From IMG/VR virus record IMGVR_UViG_3300030106_008084, positions 1-56,482 of that record: DNA of 56,482 nt; one strand, 5' to 3'. This document shows, one piece after another, positions 585-56,482 of the stretch; the stretch's first letter is position 1; the number at the start of each line of letters is the position of its first letter. The notes beneath the pieces were generated by a model. That model saw only the letters and a list, made by a program, of their open reading frames with translations. It searched no databases and was not told the origin of the DNA. The DNA comes from a virus (lineage: Duplodnaviria > Caudoviricetes). The translations under genes and the position numbers were made by a program.

Positions 585-3500
585 CTACCACTTCAACACA
601 TTGCAACGAGGACCTCCTTTAGAATCTGGAGGACAGATTGTTGTAGGTAATCTTGGTGTAGTACCGGTAGTAACTGTAGTAGTAGTTGTACGTAACGGCG
701 GTGTTGTACGTAACGGTGGTGTAGTATCTGGAAAATCTGGAAACTCTGGAGGATCTTCTGCATCACCAGGAACTATTATTACTTCTGGCTCTTGTGGTTG
801 TGGAACCGGTCCACCAGGTCCAGGTCCAGGAGGTTTGTTAGTTTCTGGGCAGGGGCAACATTCACACATTTCCCAACCTAACCCTTTATCACCCGGTTCT
901 AAAGCACCAACACCTAACTTAGCAGGTTTGTCTTCATTTTGTGGGTTGATAGCCGGGTCATTAACATGAGCTAAAACATCTATAGCAGGGTTTAACATTG
1001 GATTTTTGTTAACAAAATCTTTGTCTATAACCTTAAAACAAATAGGTCTACATGCTTCATTACAATCTTCATTAAAGTTTTTAGCAACATCCTTTAAATC
1101 TTTATCTGGCTGAAAAAATTGACCGTCTTCATTTTGAAAAGATTTTAGTTTATCACCATCAGTAATATCTTCTCTTGCAAGCTCGTTACCTTCGGCAGGA
1201 CCAGTCCAGTTATCATCATTTTTAATTAATCTTTCACGCTCTAGAGCTTCATTTATCTCATTTAAAGCTTCATCTACAGGTCCCTGTTCTCCAAAGAGAG
1301 CTAGCTCTTCTCTTAAAGCTTTTTCAAACCACTCAGGTCTTTCTATATCTTCCGGAGCTTTTCCGGGATTAGCTTCTTGAATTTGCTGCTCTCTAAGTAA
1401 TATTTCACGCACTCTGTCTACTTCTTGTGGACCTATTATTTCTCCTCTCTCACCATGGAGAAGGTTTCCACCTAATACACGTTTTACAATTCTCTCTCTT
1501 AAAGCATTAACATTACCTTCAGCTATGTTAAAATCGATTGCTGCTTCATTTACGTTTATTTCAGCATCAATTACCTGGTATTGTGCGTCTTCTACTGCTT
1601 GTTCGAATCCTCGTCGGAGATCTGCTGGTAAATTACCAAAGCCACCTACATCACTAATTCCCTGATCTAACCGGTCATTAGCTTCTTGTAATTTTTCTCT
1701 AGCTGCTATTAATTCATCACTAGCTTCTTTTCCTTTATCAAAAGCTTCTTGTATTACTTCATCAACAAAACCATCCAATACGAAAGGAGGTGGCTCACAG
1801 CAATAAGTCACCACCATATCATCTTTTACATCTATTCTTACTCCATCATCAGCTGCAGGGTCTTGTAATGCCATGCCTAAGAATGTAAATATATTTTGTC
1901 TTCTATTATCCCAGAACCAACATATATCACAATTAGTAGGAGGACAACATGGGCAACATTCACACTCTTCCCAACCATCACCTCGTCGGAATCCTTTTTC
2001 TTCGTTAACTATTTTACCCCCAGCTGTATCTTCAGATGGTCTAACTTCTTTATGAGCATTTACCCAATCAGCATCATGGATAAAATAACATCTTCTAGAA
2101 TCACGATCCTTAAACTCTGCCTGCCATTGTCTAATTCTAGCTTCTAATGCACCTCTTTGCTCTCGAGGTATATCTAGCATTTCTTGACTTGCTTTTAGTC
2201 TATCATTTTCTAATCTAGCATAAGCAACTTCTCTCTCATCTTTAGTTCCTTCAAATTCAGGTCCTTCCCAAAATACACCACCTTCTTCAGCTACACCATC
2301 ATATGGACGAAGATAATTGTTTATTGCATCTTCATAAAACCATTGACCTTCTCTTTCTGCTGGAGGTGAACATTCCGGTACGCAACACGGTGTAGTTGTA
2401 GAAGTAGTAGTACTTGTAGTACTAGTACTAGTACTTGTTGATGTACTAGTAGATGTAGTAGAGGTAGTAGAGGTAGTTGTTGTCGTTACCGGTGGGGTAG
2501 TAGTAGATGTAGTTGTACTAGTCGTAGTTGTAGTAGTTTTATCTGGGGGACAGCAAGGACATTCTTCCCATCCAGGAGTAATTCCGATAATCTTACCCTC
2601 TTCATCAATCTGTACTGGTGGGTTACAAAGAGCTGACATGTCATCTACATCAGAACTTGATCGTTCTATAGCTTTTATATCTACTAACTTATAACACTTA
2701 CCATTATAACTTACAACAATAGGCTCTCCTTTTTCTAAGGCGTCTTCAACAAACCCTACTGGGTCATTATTACCATCAAGCCAACCCATATCTTGAAATA
2801 TGTTATTGTTTGCAGATTTATCACCACTTTCTTCAGCTGCTTCGCGATCCTCTTTGCTTATTTCAGCCATACGTTCGTAATATTTGTCAATATCGCCGTC
2901 TTCTAAATACTGTTGATATGCCTCATTAACTCTTTCATCTGTTCTATCTAAATTACCCGGGAACCCTGGGTTAGGTCGATTAAGTCCTGGAGGTACAACA
3001 TCTTCAGCAGAAACATCTGGTTTTATAGGATCTAAACCACCACCAGGAACTTGATCAGGATTATTTTTTGATTGATCCCCGTCGATGCCAAATTCCTCCC
3101 TAAGATCATCATTTACGGCATTAATATCACCTAGTAATTCTTCTACTTGTTGCGGACTTACACCAGATTCAAAGTTTCCATCTTCATCAACAAGTCCTAA
3201 TAACCTTATTAAATAAGTACTATTTAAATCTCGTGCACGGTCCAATTCAAATAGCTTATCCTTTTGTGGACCTGGCTCAAAATCCGATGCAGGTCTAAAT
3301 CGATCCCTACTACCTTCTACTAACAAATTATTATCTCTAGCTTGTTGTAGTATAGCCTGGTTTACCCAACCATCCGTACTTGCATCTGCAATAGCTTGAT
3401 TGACTCTATCTTGTAACGAACTAGGTGAATTATTATTAGCTGGGACTCGTGTTAATCTAACTGCAGTAGGCTCTAAACCACCACCAGGCATGCCAGCAGC

Positions 3501-13490: not shown

Positions 13491-15859
13491 TTGTAGTTTA
13501 TAAATTTAACATCATTTATGTTAGTGGTTTCAGGAAGGGAAGAAGTTATATTATTCAATATCATAGTTTTTACTTCTTCAGTAATACTACTGTCTTGTAT
13601 ATTTAAATTCTTTACATTAATATCAACTACATTGCTTCTATGCTTTAAGTTTGTGCCAATAGAATTTACCGTGTTAATAGTATCAGTTAAGTTTCTCATA
13701 CCACATGGTAAAGATATAGTAATATCTTGAATATTATTTAAATTTTGTGTTAAGACAGCAGTAATCTCTTCTTCTGCATTTAACGGTGATAAAGTAAGAT
13801 ATATATCATCTAAGTAAATGTTATCCTCTAGATCTGGTTTAAGAATTTTTTCAGTTATATTACCAGGTGATACTATTTCTATAATACCAAATAAAATCAT
13901 TTTATTTAACATTTGGTATGACTTTATATCAAACGAAAATATAACTTCTGAATTTACATAAAAACTACACGTACCTCTTATAGCATCAAATGATAAAAAT
14001 ATAGCATTAGAAACAAAAGGATTAAGATCGATTATTTTAGTTATAGATCTTACTGTCGGTGGTTCAGGTGAATTATCAAAAATGTTAAAAGTAAATCTTA
14101 AATCACCACTAGCTAATCTTTCTATTTCAAACCCCCCATCAATGTCATTTCTTCTTGATCTTATAGTAAATTGTCCAGCATCACTTTTTATATTAAATCC
14201 TAATGCAAAGCCCCCGTTTTTATTTATTTCGTTAAAGTAATTGTTTATTCTATCAGTAAGAACTGCTCCTTCACAAAAATTAGTAGGCTTTTTTCTTTCT
14301 AATTCATCTTTTTTAATTCGTTCGTATCTGTATCTTTTATTAGGTTGGAATACTAAATCGCTCTTCTTATCAAAGATAACTTTCTTTTCTATAGAAGTTT
14401 TTAAAGAGCTATTGTTTTTAATTAAATTTTCTACTAGTTGCTCATATGTAACATCATAAGTGTTATTAGAAGATAAAGCTTCTTCTTTGGAAGCTAGGTC
14501 TGGATAAAAATACCTATCTACCCATACTCCTCTTTTACCTACGCCACCAGATAACCATGTACATAAGTATGTAGCGTCCTCACTTTTTACGCCATCTTCA
14601 TCATCTAGTTCATATACTCTATCAGCTAAAAATGGTTGTGTATATGAAAATGATCCAGAGTCTACAAATTTAGTATCATTAATATTAATCTGTGTAAAAG
14701 GATTTAAAGAAGAAGGAGTTACAAAATACGTAGAGCCTTCTCTTACCCTTACATTAAAATTATTATAAACATAGTTTAATGAAAGAGTTTCATTCTTTTC
14801 ACTATCTACATCTGAAAATATACTAGTATATTTTCTAAGTCCCTTAACATATATAGGGTTGTTATCACTTGAAGAAAGTAAATTATTAGAAGAAACATAT
14901 TGATCAAAATTATTTGAAATGTTTTTTAAATTTAATAAATCAAATTTAAGAGAGGTAGAATTAGAAGAAGTATGGAGAAGGTAATTAGAAGGTAAGTGAA
15001 AATTACTCTTACTAGTATCAACTTTTGAACCGTTTTCATTGTAGGTTATAAACGATGTATTATATGGAGATGGAATAGTTAAATCGATTTCACCTCCTAA
15101 TTTAATAGCACGAGTTGTAAAGAAAAAAGAATTAACATCATCTATATTAGATATATTTTGTGCTACTAATGTTTGTCCATTATTTTCTAAAATATATCTC
15201 TGTTCAGGACTAAAAGTATTATCTGGATCTTTAACTTTAGTAGAGAAGAAAGCTAAATAATCCGACGTTGTTCCTAACCCTCCCTTTACTATAGTATACT
15301 CTAGCTTAGCATTATCTTTGCTTATTTTATTTTCCCCAACGAATAGAGTTTTCTTTTGAGTGTTTTCTTCTGCATCATCACTAACTACTAGATAATATCT
15401 AAAGTTATTAATTAAGAAAGAAACTCTACAATGAAAAGAATCGATTAATTCAATTTCGAAATCATTAGCTTGAGTTGCATCTGTTGTTATACCAGTGTAA
15501 CCATAATATTGTGCATCATATGTGGTACCGGTTTTTTCAAAATTCTTTTTATCTGCTTTTTGAAAAGTTAAAAATCCCTCTGACTCGGCAGAAAAATTTA
15601 AAGCAGAGAAAATCTTTTTAGGTATTACACGTCCTCCTGAAAAATGTGTTACACTATCAAGAGTATACTCATCAGTGAGAAAGAAATTTGTAAAATTTAA
15701 ATTTTTAAAGCTTTGAGTACCTGAAAGAGCTGTAATAAAATTAAAATTAAATCCTCCAGAATACGTTCTACGAAACTGATCTAATTCCAAATCTACAGGA
15801 CAAATTTCTGCAGATTCTGATTTTAAAGCGCTTAAGCTAGCTTTGACCAATGCTCCCAT
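13487..15859 (-). CDS. Putative virion structural protein (possible C-terminal LamG/ConA-like domain)
   Basis: 790 aa; TATAAATA-N6-ATG; C-terminal beta-rich segment IFLSFDAIRGTCSFYVNSE. Confidence 0.55.
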   Translation of the reverse strand: MGALVKASLSALKSESAEICPVDLELDQFRRTYSGGFNFNFITALSGTQSFKNLNFTNFFLTDEYTLDSVTHFSGGRVIPKKIFSALNFSAESEGFLTFQKADKKNFEKTGTTYDAQYYGYTGITTDATQANDFEIELIDSFHCRVSFLINNFRYYLVVSDDAEENTQKKTLFVGENKISKDNAKLEYTIVKGGLGTTSDYLAFFSTKVKDPDNTFSPEQRYILENNGQTLVAQNISNIDDVNSFFFTTRAIKLGGEIDLTIPSPYNTSFITYNENGSKVDTSKSNFHLPSNYLLHTSSNSTSLKFDLLNLKNISNNFDQYVSSNNLLSSSDNNPIYVKGLRKYTSIFSDVDSEKNETLSLNYVYNNFNVRVREGSTYFVTPSSLNPFTQININDTKFVDSGSFSYTQPFLADRVYELDDEDGVKSEDATYLCTWLSGGVGKRGVWVDRYFYPDLASKEEALSSNNTYDVTYEQLVENLIKNNSSLKTSIEKKVIFDKKSDLVFQPNKRYRYERIKKDELERKKPTNFCEGAVLTDRINNYFNEINKNGGFALGFNIKSDAGQFTIRSRRNDIDGGFEIERLASGDLRFTFNIFDNSPEPPTVRSITKIIDLNPFVSNAIFLSFDAIRGTCSFYVNSEVIFSFDIKSYQMLNKMILFGIIEIVSPGNITEKILKPDLEDNIYLDDIYLTLSPLNAEEEITAVLTQNLNNIQDITISLPCGMRNLTDTINTVNSIGTNLKHRSNVVDINVKNLNIQDSSITEEVKTMILNNITSSLPETTNINDVKFINYK

Positions 15860-15879
15860 TGTATATATTTATACCAGCG

Positions 15880-17361
15880 TTAACTTAAGCGAACCGTTGA
15901 AAGTTGATACCCCCATGTATTTCCTACTGCTTCCATACCTTCACTAATTAATTCCTGTATTTGAGCGTTTCCAAAGTTTTTAGCAGTTCCTCCAGATCCA
16001 CCTCTAGTTTGTATTATACCCAACAATATAAGCTCATCATTATAAGGTATAAATAATGGACCGCCGCTATCTCCGGATGCATAACCTGATAAACTTAAAT
16101 TAGCAGATGAAAGCAATGGCGACACATTAGTTAATCTATAATTAGGTAAACCAGGAGGCTTTAAAAATATATTTACTTTATCAGATACGAGAGTGATTAT
16201 TTCGCCATTGAAACCCCTATTAGTGCGCGTTTCATTAATAACATCTGTAGTAGCTATCCCACTGTAATAATCGTTATCGAAAAATTCATTTCCCCCTTGA
16301 TTTATTAAAGGAAATTTACTAGTAGGTACTTCACTATCAAAACGTGGTACTTTATATAACTTTAAATTACCTGCAGCTCCAGTTGAGGTAGTAGCGGTAG
16401 ATAAATCTCTATCAAAACTAATAACAGTTAAGTCTCTATGAGGAATTTCTGATGTAGCAGATATAGTTGCAGATATTGAATTGCCTGTAGTAAAATCATA
16501 AAAATATACTACGTCACCTGCTGCAGGATCATGAGCTGGTTTTGCATGTGATACGCTAATTCCATGTCTTGGAGAAATTAAAGTTACATTATTTTGATCT
16601 GTAAACCCATCTGCTGCATATGACGTACCGGAAAAATTAATTTTAGATCGATTAGCATAACCCCAAAATGTTGTAGTCCAGGTAGCTGACGCCTGTGTTA
16701 CATTCTGTATAAATTTAAACTTAGCTGCTGATCCAACAGGATCAGCTACACCTGAAACATATGACTGCATTTCAGTAATACTTTGATTAGATGTATCATT
16801 ATAAGAAGATAAAGTTGTTGCAGGTAAATCAGAATACTCAATTTCTGTATCATCATGATTTTGAATTACAAAGTTATCTTTTTTCGTTAAATAGGTAAAA
16901 ATAGAATTATTATCTTCACTATCTAAAAGACTAACATTAAGAAGATCTAAATCTTCAATAGTATCTAAATAACCTTCAGTACGAACATTTACAGGAATTG
17001 TGAATTTGGTAGTATTACCATCTATATAACCAACATTAACTCTCATGGTCATTTCTTTCTTAAGTGCAGTATCTGAGGGGTAGAATATATGCTTATAAGG
17101 TTTATTAAAAAACACTGGAGATGCACCTCTTTTGATTTCAGGAAAGATTGATTCTGTTTTATAATTTCTGTATATGGTAATATCAGGTTCTTCTATGCTA
17201 CTACCATCACCCCATTCAATAGCGAGGTAATCGGGAAATATGTTAGAATAAACTTCTGAAAGATCAAGTGACAACTCAGTCATATCAAACAGATCAACTG
17301 CAGGCATTGGTATAGTTGAGCTTGAGTTAACTGATGTTAAAGATAGAGTAAATGAGTTCAT
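15880..17361 (-). CDS. Virion protein: PKD-like N-terminus plus trypsin-like (S1) serine protease
   Basis: Start moved to ATG 17361 (ATGA overlap with upstream stop). IEWGDG PKD-like motif; TLISPRHGISVSH (His), RDLTVI (Asp), GDSGGPLF (Ser), LLGII. Confidence 0.8.
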   Translation of the reverse strand: MNSFTLSLTSVNSSSTIPMPAVDLFDMTELSLDLSEVYSNIFPDYLAIEWGDGSSIEEPDITIYRNYKTESIFPEIKRGASPVFFNKPYKHIFYPSDTALKKEMTMRVNVGYIDGNTTKFTIPVNVRTEGYLDTIEDLDLLNVSLLDSEDNNSIFTYLTKKDNFVIQNHDDTEIEYSDLPATTLSSYNDTSNQSITEMQSYVSGVADPVGSAAKFKFIQNVTQASATWTTTFWGYANRSKINFSGTSYAADGFTDQNNVTLISPRHGISVSHAKPAHDPAAGDVVYFYDFTTGNSISATISATSEIPHRDLTVISFDRDLSTATTSTGAAGNLKLYKVPRFDSEVPTSKFPLINQGGNEFFDNDYYSGIATTDVINETRTNRGFNGEIITLVSDKVNIFLKPPGLPNYRLTNVSPLLSSANLSLSGYASGDSGGPLFIPYNDELILLGIIQTRGGSGGTAKNFGNAQIQELISEGMEAVGNTWGYQLSTVRLS

Positions 17362-34454: not shown

Positions 34455-35237
34455 TCAAGATTGGTTTGAGTTGCTCTGTTGTTCAATTTCACTCTTATAC
34501 ATTTCAAAGTAATCATTTAACTCTACATATGTACAGTTAAGTAAAAAATTAACATCATTAAATCTCTTAGACAGTATAAACAATAAATCCCTATAACCTT
34601 TTACATCAACGCAATTGAATAAAGATACAATAAAATGTATTAATCCTGGTTCTAATAAGTTAAATTTTATAGGCTGTATTTGCAAATTCTTTCTTTCATC
34701 TAAAAGAGTGATATCAAAAAAATTCCTATTATCCATTAAAAAGGCATCGATGTGTGAATACAGCTCTTTAGGCAATCTTTCAATAACTTTAAAGTATTCA
34801 TCTTCAGACAACTTACCTAAATTCAATTCCTCGCCTTCGATTTTAATCTTAGTTATCATTGATAGAAGAAAATCATCATCACCAATATTAAAATTTAATG
34901 GATAGTCTAAAGTATAATCAACTTTATCAATTGTAACCGTTCTTGTTAAGTTATTAATGCCTCCTATATTCTTAATTAAAAACTCTAAGCTAATTCCTAC
35001 GTCTCCTTTATCTGACCCTATAACAATGTTATCACCTATGCATTGTAATCTTAGATAGAATAATGAATGTATTTTTTCTATTATGTTTAATCCTTTAGTT
35101 AAGATAAATGACTCTAAAAAATTCAATCGACCGCTTATTGATGCTTCTTCATATAAGTTAAAAGTGCGTAGGTCTTTGAAAAATATCTCTTTCAAGCGTA
35201 CCTCTTTACCGTTTGGTAAAATATGAGATATATACAT
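34455..35237 (-). CDS. Second gp26-like hub assembly protein
   Basis: LPNGKEVRLKE..LFYLRLQCIGD..LDYP, same layout as the neighbouring gp26-like gene. Confidence 0.5.
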   Translation of the reverse strand: MYISHILPNGKEVRLKEIFFKDLRTFNLYEEASISGRLNFLESFILTKGLNIIEKIHSLFYLRLQCIGDNIVIGSDKGDVGISLEFLIKNIGGINNLTRTVTIDKVDYTLDYPLNFNIGDDDFLLSMITKIKIEGEELNLGKLSEDEYFKVIERLPKELYSHIDAFLMDNRNFFDITLLDERKNLQIQPIKFNLLEPGLIHFIVSLFNCVDVKGYRDLLFILSKRFNDVNFLLNCTYVELNDYFEMYKSEIEQQSNSNQS

Positions 35238-54967: not shown

Positions 54968-55156
54968 ATGACGATAGATCTTACTGAGAGTGATAAGGAG
55001 TATGCTAAGCAGCATGGTCTTACCTTTGGAGAAATGCGAGACTTCAAAGAAGATATGATTCGCGAAGAAGAAATGATGGTTACTTACTATCAAATGAAAG
55101 AGAAAGAACGTAGGGACTTTGAGAATAGCCCTCAAGCAATTTACGCAGCATGGTAA
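54968..55156 (+). CDS. Hypothetical protein
   Basis: Start moved to ATG 54968 (MTIDLTESDKEY) on the basis of the promoter motif. Confidence 0.65.
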   Translation: MTIDLTESDKEYAKQHGLTFGEMRDFKEDMIREEEMMVTYYQMKEKERRDFENSPQAIYAAW

Positions 55157-55410
55157 ACGAAGATAATATTTGTGGTTGTGGAAGAGAAATTGAAGAAGCT
55201 AGAGTCGAATTCGGATTTAAGAACTGTTCGGTTTGCGCGCATTCGGGCGCTGATGTCCCTCGACCGAAAGGCAGGATGGTATATAGTCATAAGACTGGTG
55301 CCGAAATTGAAATACTTTCTGCGGAGAGTTGGGACGAGAATAAGAAGTACTTTACTCCGAATGGTGCTCGCTCGGCGCTGAAGAACTTTAGTCGTAATAT
55401 CTGTTCATAA
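55150..55410 (+). CDS. C4 zinc-finger protein, DksA/TraR-finger-like
   Basis: CGCGREIEEARVEFGFKNCSVC. Confidence 0.6.
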   Translation: MVNEDNICGCGREIEEARVEFGFKNCSVCAHSGADVPRPKGRMVYSHKTGAEIEILSAESWDENKKYFTPNGARSALKNFSRNICS

Positions 55411-55442
55411 AAAAAGCCTCCTTACGGAGGCTTTTCTTTTTT
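55409..55442. terminator. Bidirectional rho-independent terminator
   Basis: AAAAAAAGCCTCC-ttac-GGAGGCTTTTCTTTTTT between convergent genes. Confidence 0.9.
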
Positions 55443-55455
55443 ATGTTAATGGTTA

Positions 55456-55992
55456 TTAAAGACTGTGAACTGATCTACAGTTTAGTTTAGGTCTAGCTCC
55501 GTGAGGACCTTTTCTCTTTTTAGGAAGCCCGTAAGCTTCGCGAATTGAGTTAAGCTCTTCTTCATCCTCATCAGGGTGATCACCATGCTTGCCGCCATAA
55601 TCTCTTTCTTCACTCTTACGACCAGTCTTTTTATCGAATCTACGAGGTCTATCACCTTTGTTACCGCCAAACGTTTTCTGCTTTTTGGTTTCTTTATGAT
55701 CTTCACCATCTTCTGGCTCTTCTTCATCGCCATGACTTTCCGCTACAATAATTTTAGCTTCATTAGCTGGGACAGAGATTAACTCATCTTTGTAATCTAC
55801 ATAATACTCTTCTACAACTCCATCAGCAGTTAAGCTATGATCAACTACGAGAAACTCTTCGTCCTCTTCACCCAGACCTGGGTGTGCAATAGTCTTAGCT
55901 CACCGATGTTGAATAGCATCAGATGCACTGTTAATAAAATTTTCATTCAATCCCTTAAGGATGTCATTAGCTGTTTTATCGAATTCGCTCAT
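55456..55992 (-). CDS. Candidate selenoprotein (178 aa, in-frame TGA at codon 31); not in ORF track
   Basis: MSEFDKTANDILKGLNENFINSASDAIQHR-[TGA 55902-55900]-AKTIAHPGLGEEDEEFLVVDHSLTADGVVEEYYVDYKDELISVPANEAKIIVAESHGDEEE...RSVHSL*. Late promoter upstream, SECIS-like hairpin after the TGA, terminator downstream. Confidence 0.75.
55869..55884 (-). promoter_or_regulatory. Bacterial SECIS-like hairpin
   Basis: mRNA CACCCAG-GU-CUGGGUG is a perfect inverted repeat starting 16 nt after the UGA. Confidence 0.72.
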
Positions 55993-55997
55993 AGAAA

Positions 55998-56003
55998 TAT
56001 TTA
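55998..56003 (-). promoter_or_regulatory. Late promoter TAAATA of the candidate selenoprotein gene
   Basis: TAAATA-TTTCT-ATG, same spacing as the gp17, gp18 and gp19 genes. Confidence 0.7.
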
Positions 56004-56040
56004 TTTAATACAGCTCTATTTCCATAGATTTTTGTAAAAT

Positions 56041-56057
56041 AGGAACTATAATATAAT
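56041..56057 (+). promoter_or_regulatory. AGGAACT-N4-TATAAT promoter-like element
   Basis: aggaact-ataa-tataat, 6 nt before ATG 56064. Confidence 0.7.
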
Positions 56058-56063
56058 CATAAT

Positions 56064-56375
56064 ATGAAACAGGACAAATACTTTGAACTTAGAATTTTTA
56101 TTTGCTTTATTTTAACTATTTTTTATGTGCAGTATACTGTACTAGTTAATAAGAATAACGAACCATCAACAGTCGAAGTGCTTAAAGAAAAGGCTTTAGA
56201 TGGATTTGAGGTTCGTATTATTAACGACCACGCAAACGAACGACTAGAGTTAACAGAAACTCTCGATCAAGCGCTAGCCTACATTAAGGAATACTCTATG
56301 CATCATGATGACTTAGTAGCATTTAATTTGTCTACTGGTTCAATAGTTGCTAAAAGTAACCCAGCAATTGACTAG
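56064..56375 (+). CDS. Hypothetical protein with N-terminal TM segment
   Basis: 103 aa; hydrophobic IFICFILTIFYVQYTVLV. Confidence 0.65.
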   Translation: MKQDKYFELRIFICFILTIFYVQYTVLVNKNNEPSTVEVLKEKALDGFEVRIINDHANERLELTETLDQALAYIKEYSMHHDDLVAFNLSTGSIVAKSNPAID

Positions 56376-56450
56376 CGCTTGTAGCTCAGTGGTAAGAGCA
56401 CTCGACTCATAATCGATAGGTCCTGGGTTCAAATCCCAGCGGGCGCACCA
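56375..56450 (+). tRNA. tRNA with CAT anticodon, probably tRNA-Ile2 (lysidine), alternatively elongator Met
   Basis: GCGCTTG/CGGGCGC acceptor stem, D arm AGCTCAGTGGTAAGAGC, anticodon arm TCGA-CTCATAA-TCGA, GGTTCAAATCC T arm, encoded CCA; no initiator features. Confidence 0.93.
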
Positions 56451-56482
56451 AAAATTTAAAATGGATACAGACGAAGCAATAC

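Follow-up and report, generated by a model that had tools for sequence, protein, structure and literature searches.

Can a bacterial virus encode a protein that contains selenocysteine (Sec)? Cells and two poxviruses are known to recode UGA as Sec. The question is raised here by a gene on the minus strand near one end of IMG/VR record IMGVR_UViG_3300030106_008084, all 56,482 bases of which were analyzed and are referred to below as the window. The gene is a frame of 178 codons in which codon 31 is UGA, and the UGA is followed, inside the coding sequence, by a compact hairpin that resembles a bacterial Sec insertion sequence (SECIS). A preliminary description, made from the letters of the window alone, had proposed it as a candidate phage-encoded selenoprotein gene. 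We consider it very likely, from the comparative sequence evidence set out below, that this phage gene encodes a selenoprotein and that UGA-31 would be decoded as Sec by means of a bacterial-type SECIS. The record has a G+C content of 34% and an estimated completeness of 27%, and it contains a myovirus structural module that includes the tail sheath and the large terminase (TerL), the latter with less than 40% identity to the TerL of every cultured phage. The window phage is an uncultured marine myovirus.

The layout given in the preliminary description was confirmed on the sequence. Starting from the ATG at 55992, 30 sense codons that end in Q-H-R precede the TGA, after which 147 open codons beginning A-K-T-I-A-H-P-G-L-G run to the tandem TAA stops and a terminator-like hairpin. 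Codon 31 is TGA not only in the window but in 137 of the 137 related phage and metagenome loci that cover the site, with no instance of TGG, TGT or TGC. These loci comprise 89 of the set L002 to L091 (the 90th, L076, begins downstream of the site) and 48 of a more distant branch; some of them are one contig held by two collections, and there are 73 distinct 60-nt versions of the site. The TGA-bearing loci extend to approximately 40 to 49% protein identity, and all ten IMG/VR relatives have TGA at the site. Immediately before the UGA the codon is variable (CGG, CAA, CAC, ACC, ACA, TTC and others). Elsewhere on both sides of the TGA the residues are conserved and the codons vary synonymously among 54 distinct relatives, as with D25 (GAT/GAC), Q28 (CAA/CAG) and A32 (GCT/GCG/GCA); A32, T34, I35, A36 and H37, directly past the UGA, combine protein-level conservation with synonymous change. 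The two halves of the gene share one frame in 80 of the 80 complete genes of relatives. As judged by these codon comparisons, both halves are under purifying selection.

The variable codon before the UGA and the protein-conserved codons after it also rule out two other modes of recoding. One is translational bypass of the T4 gene 60 type, in which take-off and landing codons are matched and the intervening codons are untranslated; the other is frameshifting at the UGA. A single public protein, P0135, leaves the family frame across the UGA region ('IEHRTLKAP') and resumes it afterwards; the frame change is probably a sequencing error, an indel in a run of A, and it could be a natural frameshifted variant.

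Homologues that have a sense codon at the position of the UGA have Cys there. When 1.84 billion representative proteins were searched with a profile, 50 matched, and 30 of these were retrieved: 20 of the 30 have Cys at the aligned column, in the motif H-x-C-A-[ST]-H-V, nine have 'W' and belong to branches with TGA at the DNA level, and one is in an odd frame. Among the distant sense-codon homologues the residue is Cys in 20/20 and never Trp. Alignment of the Sec and Cys branches with hhalign gave a probability of 98.7% and an E value of 2e-16 across 62 columns, and it placed the U column against the C column; the score is to be discounted slightly because C was written at the UGA in the profile and adds a little to it. 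Invariant in both branches are H29, U/C31, A32, H52, G58 and H87. The preliminary description had likened the domain to small proteins of T4-like marine phages with H-x-C at this position, and the comparison was correct: the Cys proteins match phrog_764, phrog_22379 and phrog_11470, and for two of them the cultured-phage relatives are only in T4-like cyanophages (269 and 243 records). Examples are PHM1_163 of P-HM1, PSSM7_192 of P-SSM7 and SShM2_183 of S-ShM2, annotated as 'possible cytitidyltransferase' or hypothetical; the 'cytidyltransferase' name on phrog_764 and on the cyanophage genes probably derives only from the neighboring gene. All Pfam matches of the Cys homologues are below the cut-offs.

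The site was inspected in five cyanophage loci. All five have TGT or TGC, and in none of them is there a SECIS-like hairpin better than -0.6 kcal/mol after the Cys codon. The preliminary description had made its proposal depend on homologues showing Cys or TGA, and on the hairpin being confined to the TGA versions; both expectations were borne out. Taken at the level of sequence, the split between UGA and Cys is the classical Sec/Cys signature. The protein of the window and those of the cyanophages have in common a core domain with H-x-[C/U]-A, H52, G58 and H87; unlike the window gene, the cyanophage proteins are often longer, duplicated or fused, and their hosts are Prochlorococcus and Synechococcus. 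Some proteins of the Cys branch contain two copies of the domain and others are fused to an N-terminal HExxH region, HELVHH (P0148, P0156, P0159, P0166; P0143, P0145, P0161); the region resembles a metallopeptidase, with Pfam matches below the cut-off.

The hairpin predicted in the preliminary description, CACCCAG-GU-CUGGGUG, is present at 55884-55869. It occupies nt 19-34 counted from the U of the UGA, and so starts 15 nt past the UGA, with its loop at nt 25-28. RNAalifold predicts the same upper stem. Among 51 distinct sequences, the partners in the seven stem pairs match in 99.7% of cells; once they are slid, the figure falls to 17-47%. At pair 37:40, 36 of the 51 have GC and 15 have AU. 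The innermost pair alternates between G25:C28 and A25:U28, that is, between GGT CTG and AGT TTG, at the cost of turning Gly39 into Ser, and no intermediate of this switch is found among 99 sequences of this hairpin type. When the hairpin columns are left out of the tree, eight changes are needed for the switch, and well-supported branches force at least four of them (for example L065 vs L077, and L081 vs L082/L083). A change of C21 to U at the wobble position of His37 keeps the pairing with G, as G-U, in 14/51.

Synonymous sites are frozen inside the hairpin only. Pro38 is CCA in 54/54, Gly39 is GGT in 43/43 and Gly41 is GGT in 53/54, and Leu40 is only CTG or TTG although the other Leu sites of this A+T-rich genome favor TTA; outside the hairpin, by contrast, Pro75 is found with all four codons. 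Distant clades encode different peptides over the same region (KAPPFGES, SAPQFEGV, VAPVGAE) with different stems (GCUCCUC/GGGGAGU, CACCUCA/UGAGGGYG, GCRCC/GGUGC), and yet the apical G-U is kept across clades, with its G at nt 22, 26 or 27; the loop types GGUC, AGUU, CGUUU, UGUUU and GUU all contain G-U. Because synonymous sites are frozen, the innermost pair switches as a pair, and stems and peptides differ between clades around a constant apical G-U, selection in the hairpin is seen, on comparative grounds, to act on the RNA rather than on the peptide. A lower stem is possible in addition (Table 1); it is not shared consistently by the clades with other hairpin types.

A 2026 review of prokaryotic selenoproteomes (PMC13188914) gives a consensus for the bacterial SECIS in which the loop measures 3-9 nt and the stem 4-16 bp, the minimum free energy (MFE) is no higher than -7.5 kcal/mol, one of the first two loop positions is G, with G or U usually next, and 16-37 nt separate the UGA from the loop. 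The window hairpin has a loop of 4 nt and a stem of 6 bp; in the other clades the loop ranges from 3 to 5 nt and the stem from 5 to 7 bp. The loop G is placed as in the consensus in all loop types. The spacing is 21 nt in the window, where the loop begins at nt 25, and 17-23 nt in the other clades. The MFE of the window hairpin alone is -7.9 kcal/mol (-9.5 for a 48-nt fold and -14.3 for a 60-nt fold). By the published model the hairpin would be classed as a bacterial-type SECIS, with recognition by SelB presumed. The features by which a selenoprotein gene is known are likewise found together: a UGA conserved among orthologues, protein-level selection on both flanks, and Cys homologues.

The closest likeness is to the SECIS of Escherichia coli fdhF, which encodes formate dehydrogenase H with Sec at UGA-140. 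Comparison with the K-12 sequence shows an identical apex, CA-GGUC-UG, in a hairpin that also lies inside the coding sequence after the UGA; the apical G-U (G23-U24 in fdhF), which we take to be the bases contacted by SelB, is encoded in both by GGU CUG (Gly-Leu) in the same frame. The preliminary description had placed the fdhF element in the same frame and one codon nearer the UGA, and this is accurate: the phage loop is 3 nt farther from the UGA (nt 25-28 vs 22-25). The two differ also in that the phage stem is a perfect 6 bp without a bulged U, in that the proteins are unrelated, and in that the one is a gene of a marine phage.

In the mechanism that we envisage, the ribosome would reach the UGA and the 16-nt hairpin would act as a bacterial-type SECIS. 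SelB of the host, loaded with Sec-tRNA(Sec) that SelA, SelC and SelD of the host have produced, would recognize the G-U exposed at the apex of the hairpin and supply Sec while competing with release factor 2, and Sec in the motif Q-H-x-U-A would stand in for the Cys of the cyanophage homologues. We infer the recognition by SelB, the insertion of selenium, the Sec competence of the host and the chemistry of the protein. The phage records themselves offer no Sec machinery: tRNA-Sec reached the family cut-off in 0/10 related phage records, and SelA, SelB-wing3 and SelD were each matched in 0/5 related records, both sets including a record with an estimated completeness of 93%. It follows that decoding would have to rely on the host. 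A control genome, that of Synechococcus elongatus, gave no match for SelA or SelB-wing3. According to a preprint, complete Sec machinery is present in all Actinomarina genomes and selC is absent from 135 Pelagibacter genomes. This shows only that Sec-competent bacteria of low G+C content exist in the sea and is not evidence of their being hosts. There is no need for E. coli to be the decoding host of this uncultured marine myovirus. The photosystem gene psbA was not found in five related records.

Readthrough of the UGA could instead be programmed without selenium. The hairpin would then slow termination and a near-cognate tRNA, for Trp or Cys, would read the UGA at low frequency, to give a 30-residue peptide and a minor full-length product. 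Of the stop codons UGA is the most prone to leak, and phage Qbeta makes its A1 protein by reading through a UGA, a case that is alike in that a phage product needs an in-frame UGA to be decoded. Sec machinery was not found in the related phage records searched, and Trp stands at position 31 in 113/120 of the homologues in public protein sets. This Trp, however, is an artefact of gene callers choosing table 4 on short AT-rich contigs, because the DNA of 137/137 loci reads TGA; P0124 ('...KKKKKW...') in the same manner reads W through a TGA that truly ends near-identical genes in L088 and L091. Public clusters P0002-P0121 and P0124 are recorded with Trp at the UGA or truncated to a downstream start, so that the statement of the preliminary description that gene callers miss the gene entirely does not hold. 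The Qbeta UGA comes after a coat protein that is already complete; which residue is inserted there does not matter, and no particular hairpin is required. In contrast, the UGA of the window gene lies inside a conserved motif, indeed within the most conserved motif of the protein, and is aligned with Cys as the sole sense residue of homologues. A generic roadblock hairpin, moreover, would not need an apical G-U that stays invariant through changes of stem and peptide. Readthrough without selenium is thus unlikely.

Termination at the UGA would leave a 30-residue peptide, with the downstream frame expressed by non-canonical reinitiation or not at all and the hairpin acting as a regulatory or RNA-stability element. 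This is what standard table 11 returns for the window, a 30-codon open reading frame (ORF) only, and on long contigs the callers begin the gene at a downstream codon (P0109, P0114, P0119). The window frame past codon 31, however, contains no ATG or GTG, as the preliminary description had said, and no TTG either, with ATT, ATC and CTG as the only alternatives. The protein-level conservation that begins right after the UGA, the single frame of the two halves in every complete gene and the continuity of the Cys homologues across the site also speak against a true stop, which we hold to be very improbable.

Late genes with in-frame stop codons that standard callers mishandle are known from phages that use codes 4 and 15, and in this respect the window gene is like them. 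TGA could accordingly be imagined to encode a standard amino acid throughout the late genes, through an alternative code or a phage suppressor tRNA, the more so as tRNA genes adjoin the gene. Recoding in code 4 and code 15 phages is genome-wide and proceeds via suppressor tRNAs, whereas here recoding affects one codon of one gene and TGA serves elsewhere as an ordinary stop. It ends 7/44 long ORFs in the window, no other long ORF of which is interrupted, and it ends the same gene in relatives L060, L088 and L091. The adjoining tRNAs are Leu(taa), Met(cat) and Arg(tct), and these three, with a transfer-messenger RNA (tmRNA), are the only ones in G006, a related IMG/VR record of 196,877 bases that holds locus L146 and has an estimated completeness of 93%. 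Recoding candidates number one in the window and one credible one, in the same gene, in that relative. Genome-wide reassignment of TGA (code 4 or 25) is rejected on these counts, and an alternative code or suppressor tRNA has hardly any probability. A second TGA with a hairpin in the 197-kb relative, on the minus strand at 34823, proved to be an upstream stop before a lipoprotein gene with its own ATG. The tmRNA gene of G006 was located by ARAGORN at complement 15777-16193.

Sequencing or assembly error or a pseudogene might be suspected of a window that is a single metagenomic contig, a point on which the preliminary description had staked its proposal, but this reading, to which we attach practically no probability, is already refuted as far as contigs show: TGA is present in 137 other loci from many assemblies and in independent contigs and runs, both halves are under purifying selection, and in Logan contigs of four public runs, each from a separate study, the variant places listed (40 of 63) all fall outside 55900-55902, the preceding codon being variable. 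Contigs from two RNA libraries span the UGA (X15, 55703-55917; X16, 55592-55965); a sequence may be present in such a library without having been transcribed. The summed contig depth of a marine DNA run peaks at 55856-55903, at 354-486 vs approximately 25-175 elsewhere; such a peak would be expected if many related phages share a nucleotide-conserved segment.

Several observations weigh against decoding of UGA-31 as Sec and must be set beside the evidence for it. The case for Sec insertion, and for readthrough as such, is computational, and a Sec-competent host is presupposed. The 60-nt region is no more stable than its shuffles (z -0.35), and therefore the structural case rests on the covariation and the frozen synonymous sites. 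Some relatives, those with CAU, reach a 48-nt MFE of only -6.9 to -7.0 kcal/mol. The stem is perfect, without the bulged U that E. coli SelB needs, and the distance between UGA and hairpin differs by up to 5 nt between clades. On the favorable side, the hairpin is more than a product of chance by an ad hoc filter that requires at least five contiguous pairs, for it singles out this site as the only one with a hairpin of -4 kcal/mol or better (-7.9) among the 33 window TGAs that have at least 25 open codons before and at least 40 after, and it finds 30 hairpins at -4 or better and 6 at -7 or better among all 1991 TGA trinucleotides of the window, but it misses the genuine E. coli fdhF SECIS, which has four pairs and a bulge, and these background rates are only indicative. 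The filter is passed by 71/73 distinct sites of the family, the remaining two having a contiguous stem of 4 bp only. The Sec would lie outside the classical CxxU or UxxC redox motif. Finally, no SECIS family is among the 27 Rfam matches (E up to 10) in 55400-56482. The absence says little, because bacterial SECIS elements are poorly represented in Rfam, as a preprint notes.

The protein has an N-terminal helix, a conserved core of approximately 60 residues (29-87) and a charged, variable tail. An AlphaFold2 model from a 50-row alignment has a helix at 3-23, a small beta domain with a predicted local distance difference test score of 80-89 over residues 31-80, and a disordered tail. The best matches in a structure search are SH3, Tudor and KOW domains, with Z of 5.4 at most where the trust level is 8; they are generic and suggest no function. 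The invariant H29, Sec/Cys31, H52 and H87 would most likely form a metal-binding or redox center on what may be a small SH3-like beta-barrel. With the read-through protein or the region as query, Pfam gave only PF02276, below the cut-off (E 0.24), and PHROGs gave no match; blastn and tblastn against 50,697 phage records gave no match, nor did a sequence profile search of the PDB at E up to 1. Pattern-based scans with profiles A4 and A9 over 185,579 genomes, one per species, found no cellular relative, which is weak evidence in that exact peptide patterns were needed. At the end of the low-complexity tail, NSIREAYGLPKKRKGPHG-x-x-PKLNCRSV is conserved in one sub-branch (the C-terminal 30 residues in the window, 55459-55560, and the C terminus of P0129). 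This tail motif holds the sole Cys of the window protein, and a similar 'LHGARPKL' occurs in a distant Sec sub-branch.

The positions of the gene, its recoding signal and its flanking features are collected in Table 1. The consensus of the T4 late promoter is, we take it, TATAAATA. The exact arrangement TATAAATA-N5-ATG is present in relatives L004, L005 and L009-L011 (around 2983-3003), and TATAAATA is not enriched in the window, with 9 exact occurrences against 14 expected by chance. No Shine-Dalgarno sequence is visible at the late-like box and the ATG (window 55990-56010; also L004, L005 and L009-L011). A promoter at the box would yield an mRNA with little or no leader. The convergent neighbor on the plus strand, 55150-55410, encodes 86 residues with C-G-C and C-S-V-C motifs and looks like a small zinc ribbon.

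Table 1. Positions in the window of the UGA-containing gene, its hairpin and the adjoining signals (nt numbers are counted from the U of the UGA)
Feature	Position	Strand	Basis
Coding sequence, 178 codons through one UGA	55459..55992	-	Translation; same layout in 80 complete genes of relatives
ATG start	55990..55992	-	Conserved in 11/11 aligned sequences
In-frame UGA, codon 31, proposed Sec codon, in motif Q-H-x-U-A	55900..55902	-	Conserved in relatives; aligns with Cys of distant homologues
SECIS-like upper stem-loop CACCCA(GGUC)UGGGUG, 6 bp plus a G:C closing pair inside the loop	55869..55884	-	Covariation, RNAalifold
Apical G26-U27, bases expected to be read by SelB	55876..55877	-	G-U at the 5' side of the loop in the hairpin type of every clade
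Possible lower stem, GAGC (nt 2-5) with GUUU (nt 48-51)	55852..55901	-	RNAalifold; four pairs nearly invariant
Tandem stops TAA TAA	55453..55458	-	Sequence
Intrinsic-terminator-like hairpin, G+C-rich, with T runs on both strands, between convergent genes	55412..55435	.	Sequence; weak terminator-like Rfam matches
TAAATA box, 5 nt upstream of ATG, like T4 late promoter	55998..56003	-	Consensus resemblance; promoter function inferred only

Among viruses, the known counterparts are the selenoproteins of two poxviruses, GPx1 of molluscum contagiosum virus and GPx4 of fowlpox virus. They resemble the proposed phage selenoprotein in being virus-encoded and wholly dependent on the Sec machinery of the host, and the SECIS of fowlpox GPx4 is, according to PMC8310308 and PMC1802603, also within the coding region. 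Unlike the phage hairpin, which is of bacterial type and lies just after the UGA, the poxvirus elements are SECISs of eukaryotic type, and the genes that contain them were captured from the host. As far as their accessible text goes, a review of viral recoding (PMC8310308) has poxvirus selenoproteins only, a scan of 1977 viral sequences (PMC1802603) names only those of poxviruses, the review of prokaryotic selenoproteomes contains neither 'phage' nor 'virus', and a paper on marine trace elements (PMC9402790) states that families beyond three named metalloproteins lack viral sequences or have very few. Literature searches aimed at phage selenoproteins yielded the scan of 1977 sequences alone, and among the 15 hits listed of the 1,251 from a further search none contains 'selenoprotein'. 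Within the text of such reviews and scans, a scope that does not take in the supplementary tables to the papers on the marine selenoproteome, deep-Sep and BSepDB, we found no report of a phage selenoprotein.

It is probable, though with less assurance than for the decoding of the one gene, that we are dealing with the first selenoprotein family of bacterial viruses: a branch of uncultured marine myoviruses that would use Sec in place of the invariant Cys of a phage-specific His-rich domain, with a SECIS of its own and the SelA, SelB, SelC and SelD of the host. A phage selenoprotein would show that phages exploit the rarest decoding pathway of their hosts, and it would tie late phage protein synthesis to the selenium status of the host. 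It would add to the selenoproteome a widespread marine gene family now mis-annotated as Trp-containing, truncated or absent. If the proposal is true, UGA with its hairpin marks phages of Sec-decoding hosts, unlike the Cys form of the cyanophages, and would give a sequence marker by which the hosts of an abundant group of uncultured phages could be narrowed to Sec-decoding bacteria. The family would also amount to a natural collection of compact SECIS hairpins that are diverse and already covary, and the Sec/Cys split between these phages and the cyanophages would be a clean system in which to study the benefit of Sec over Cys.

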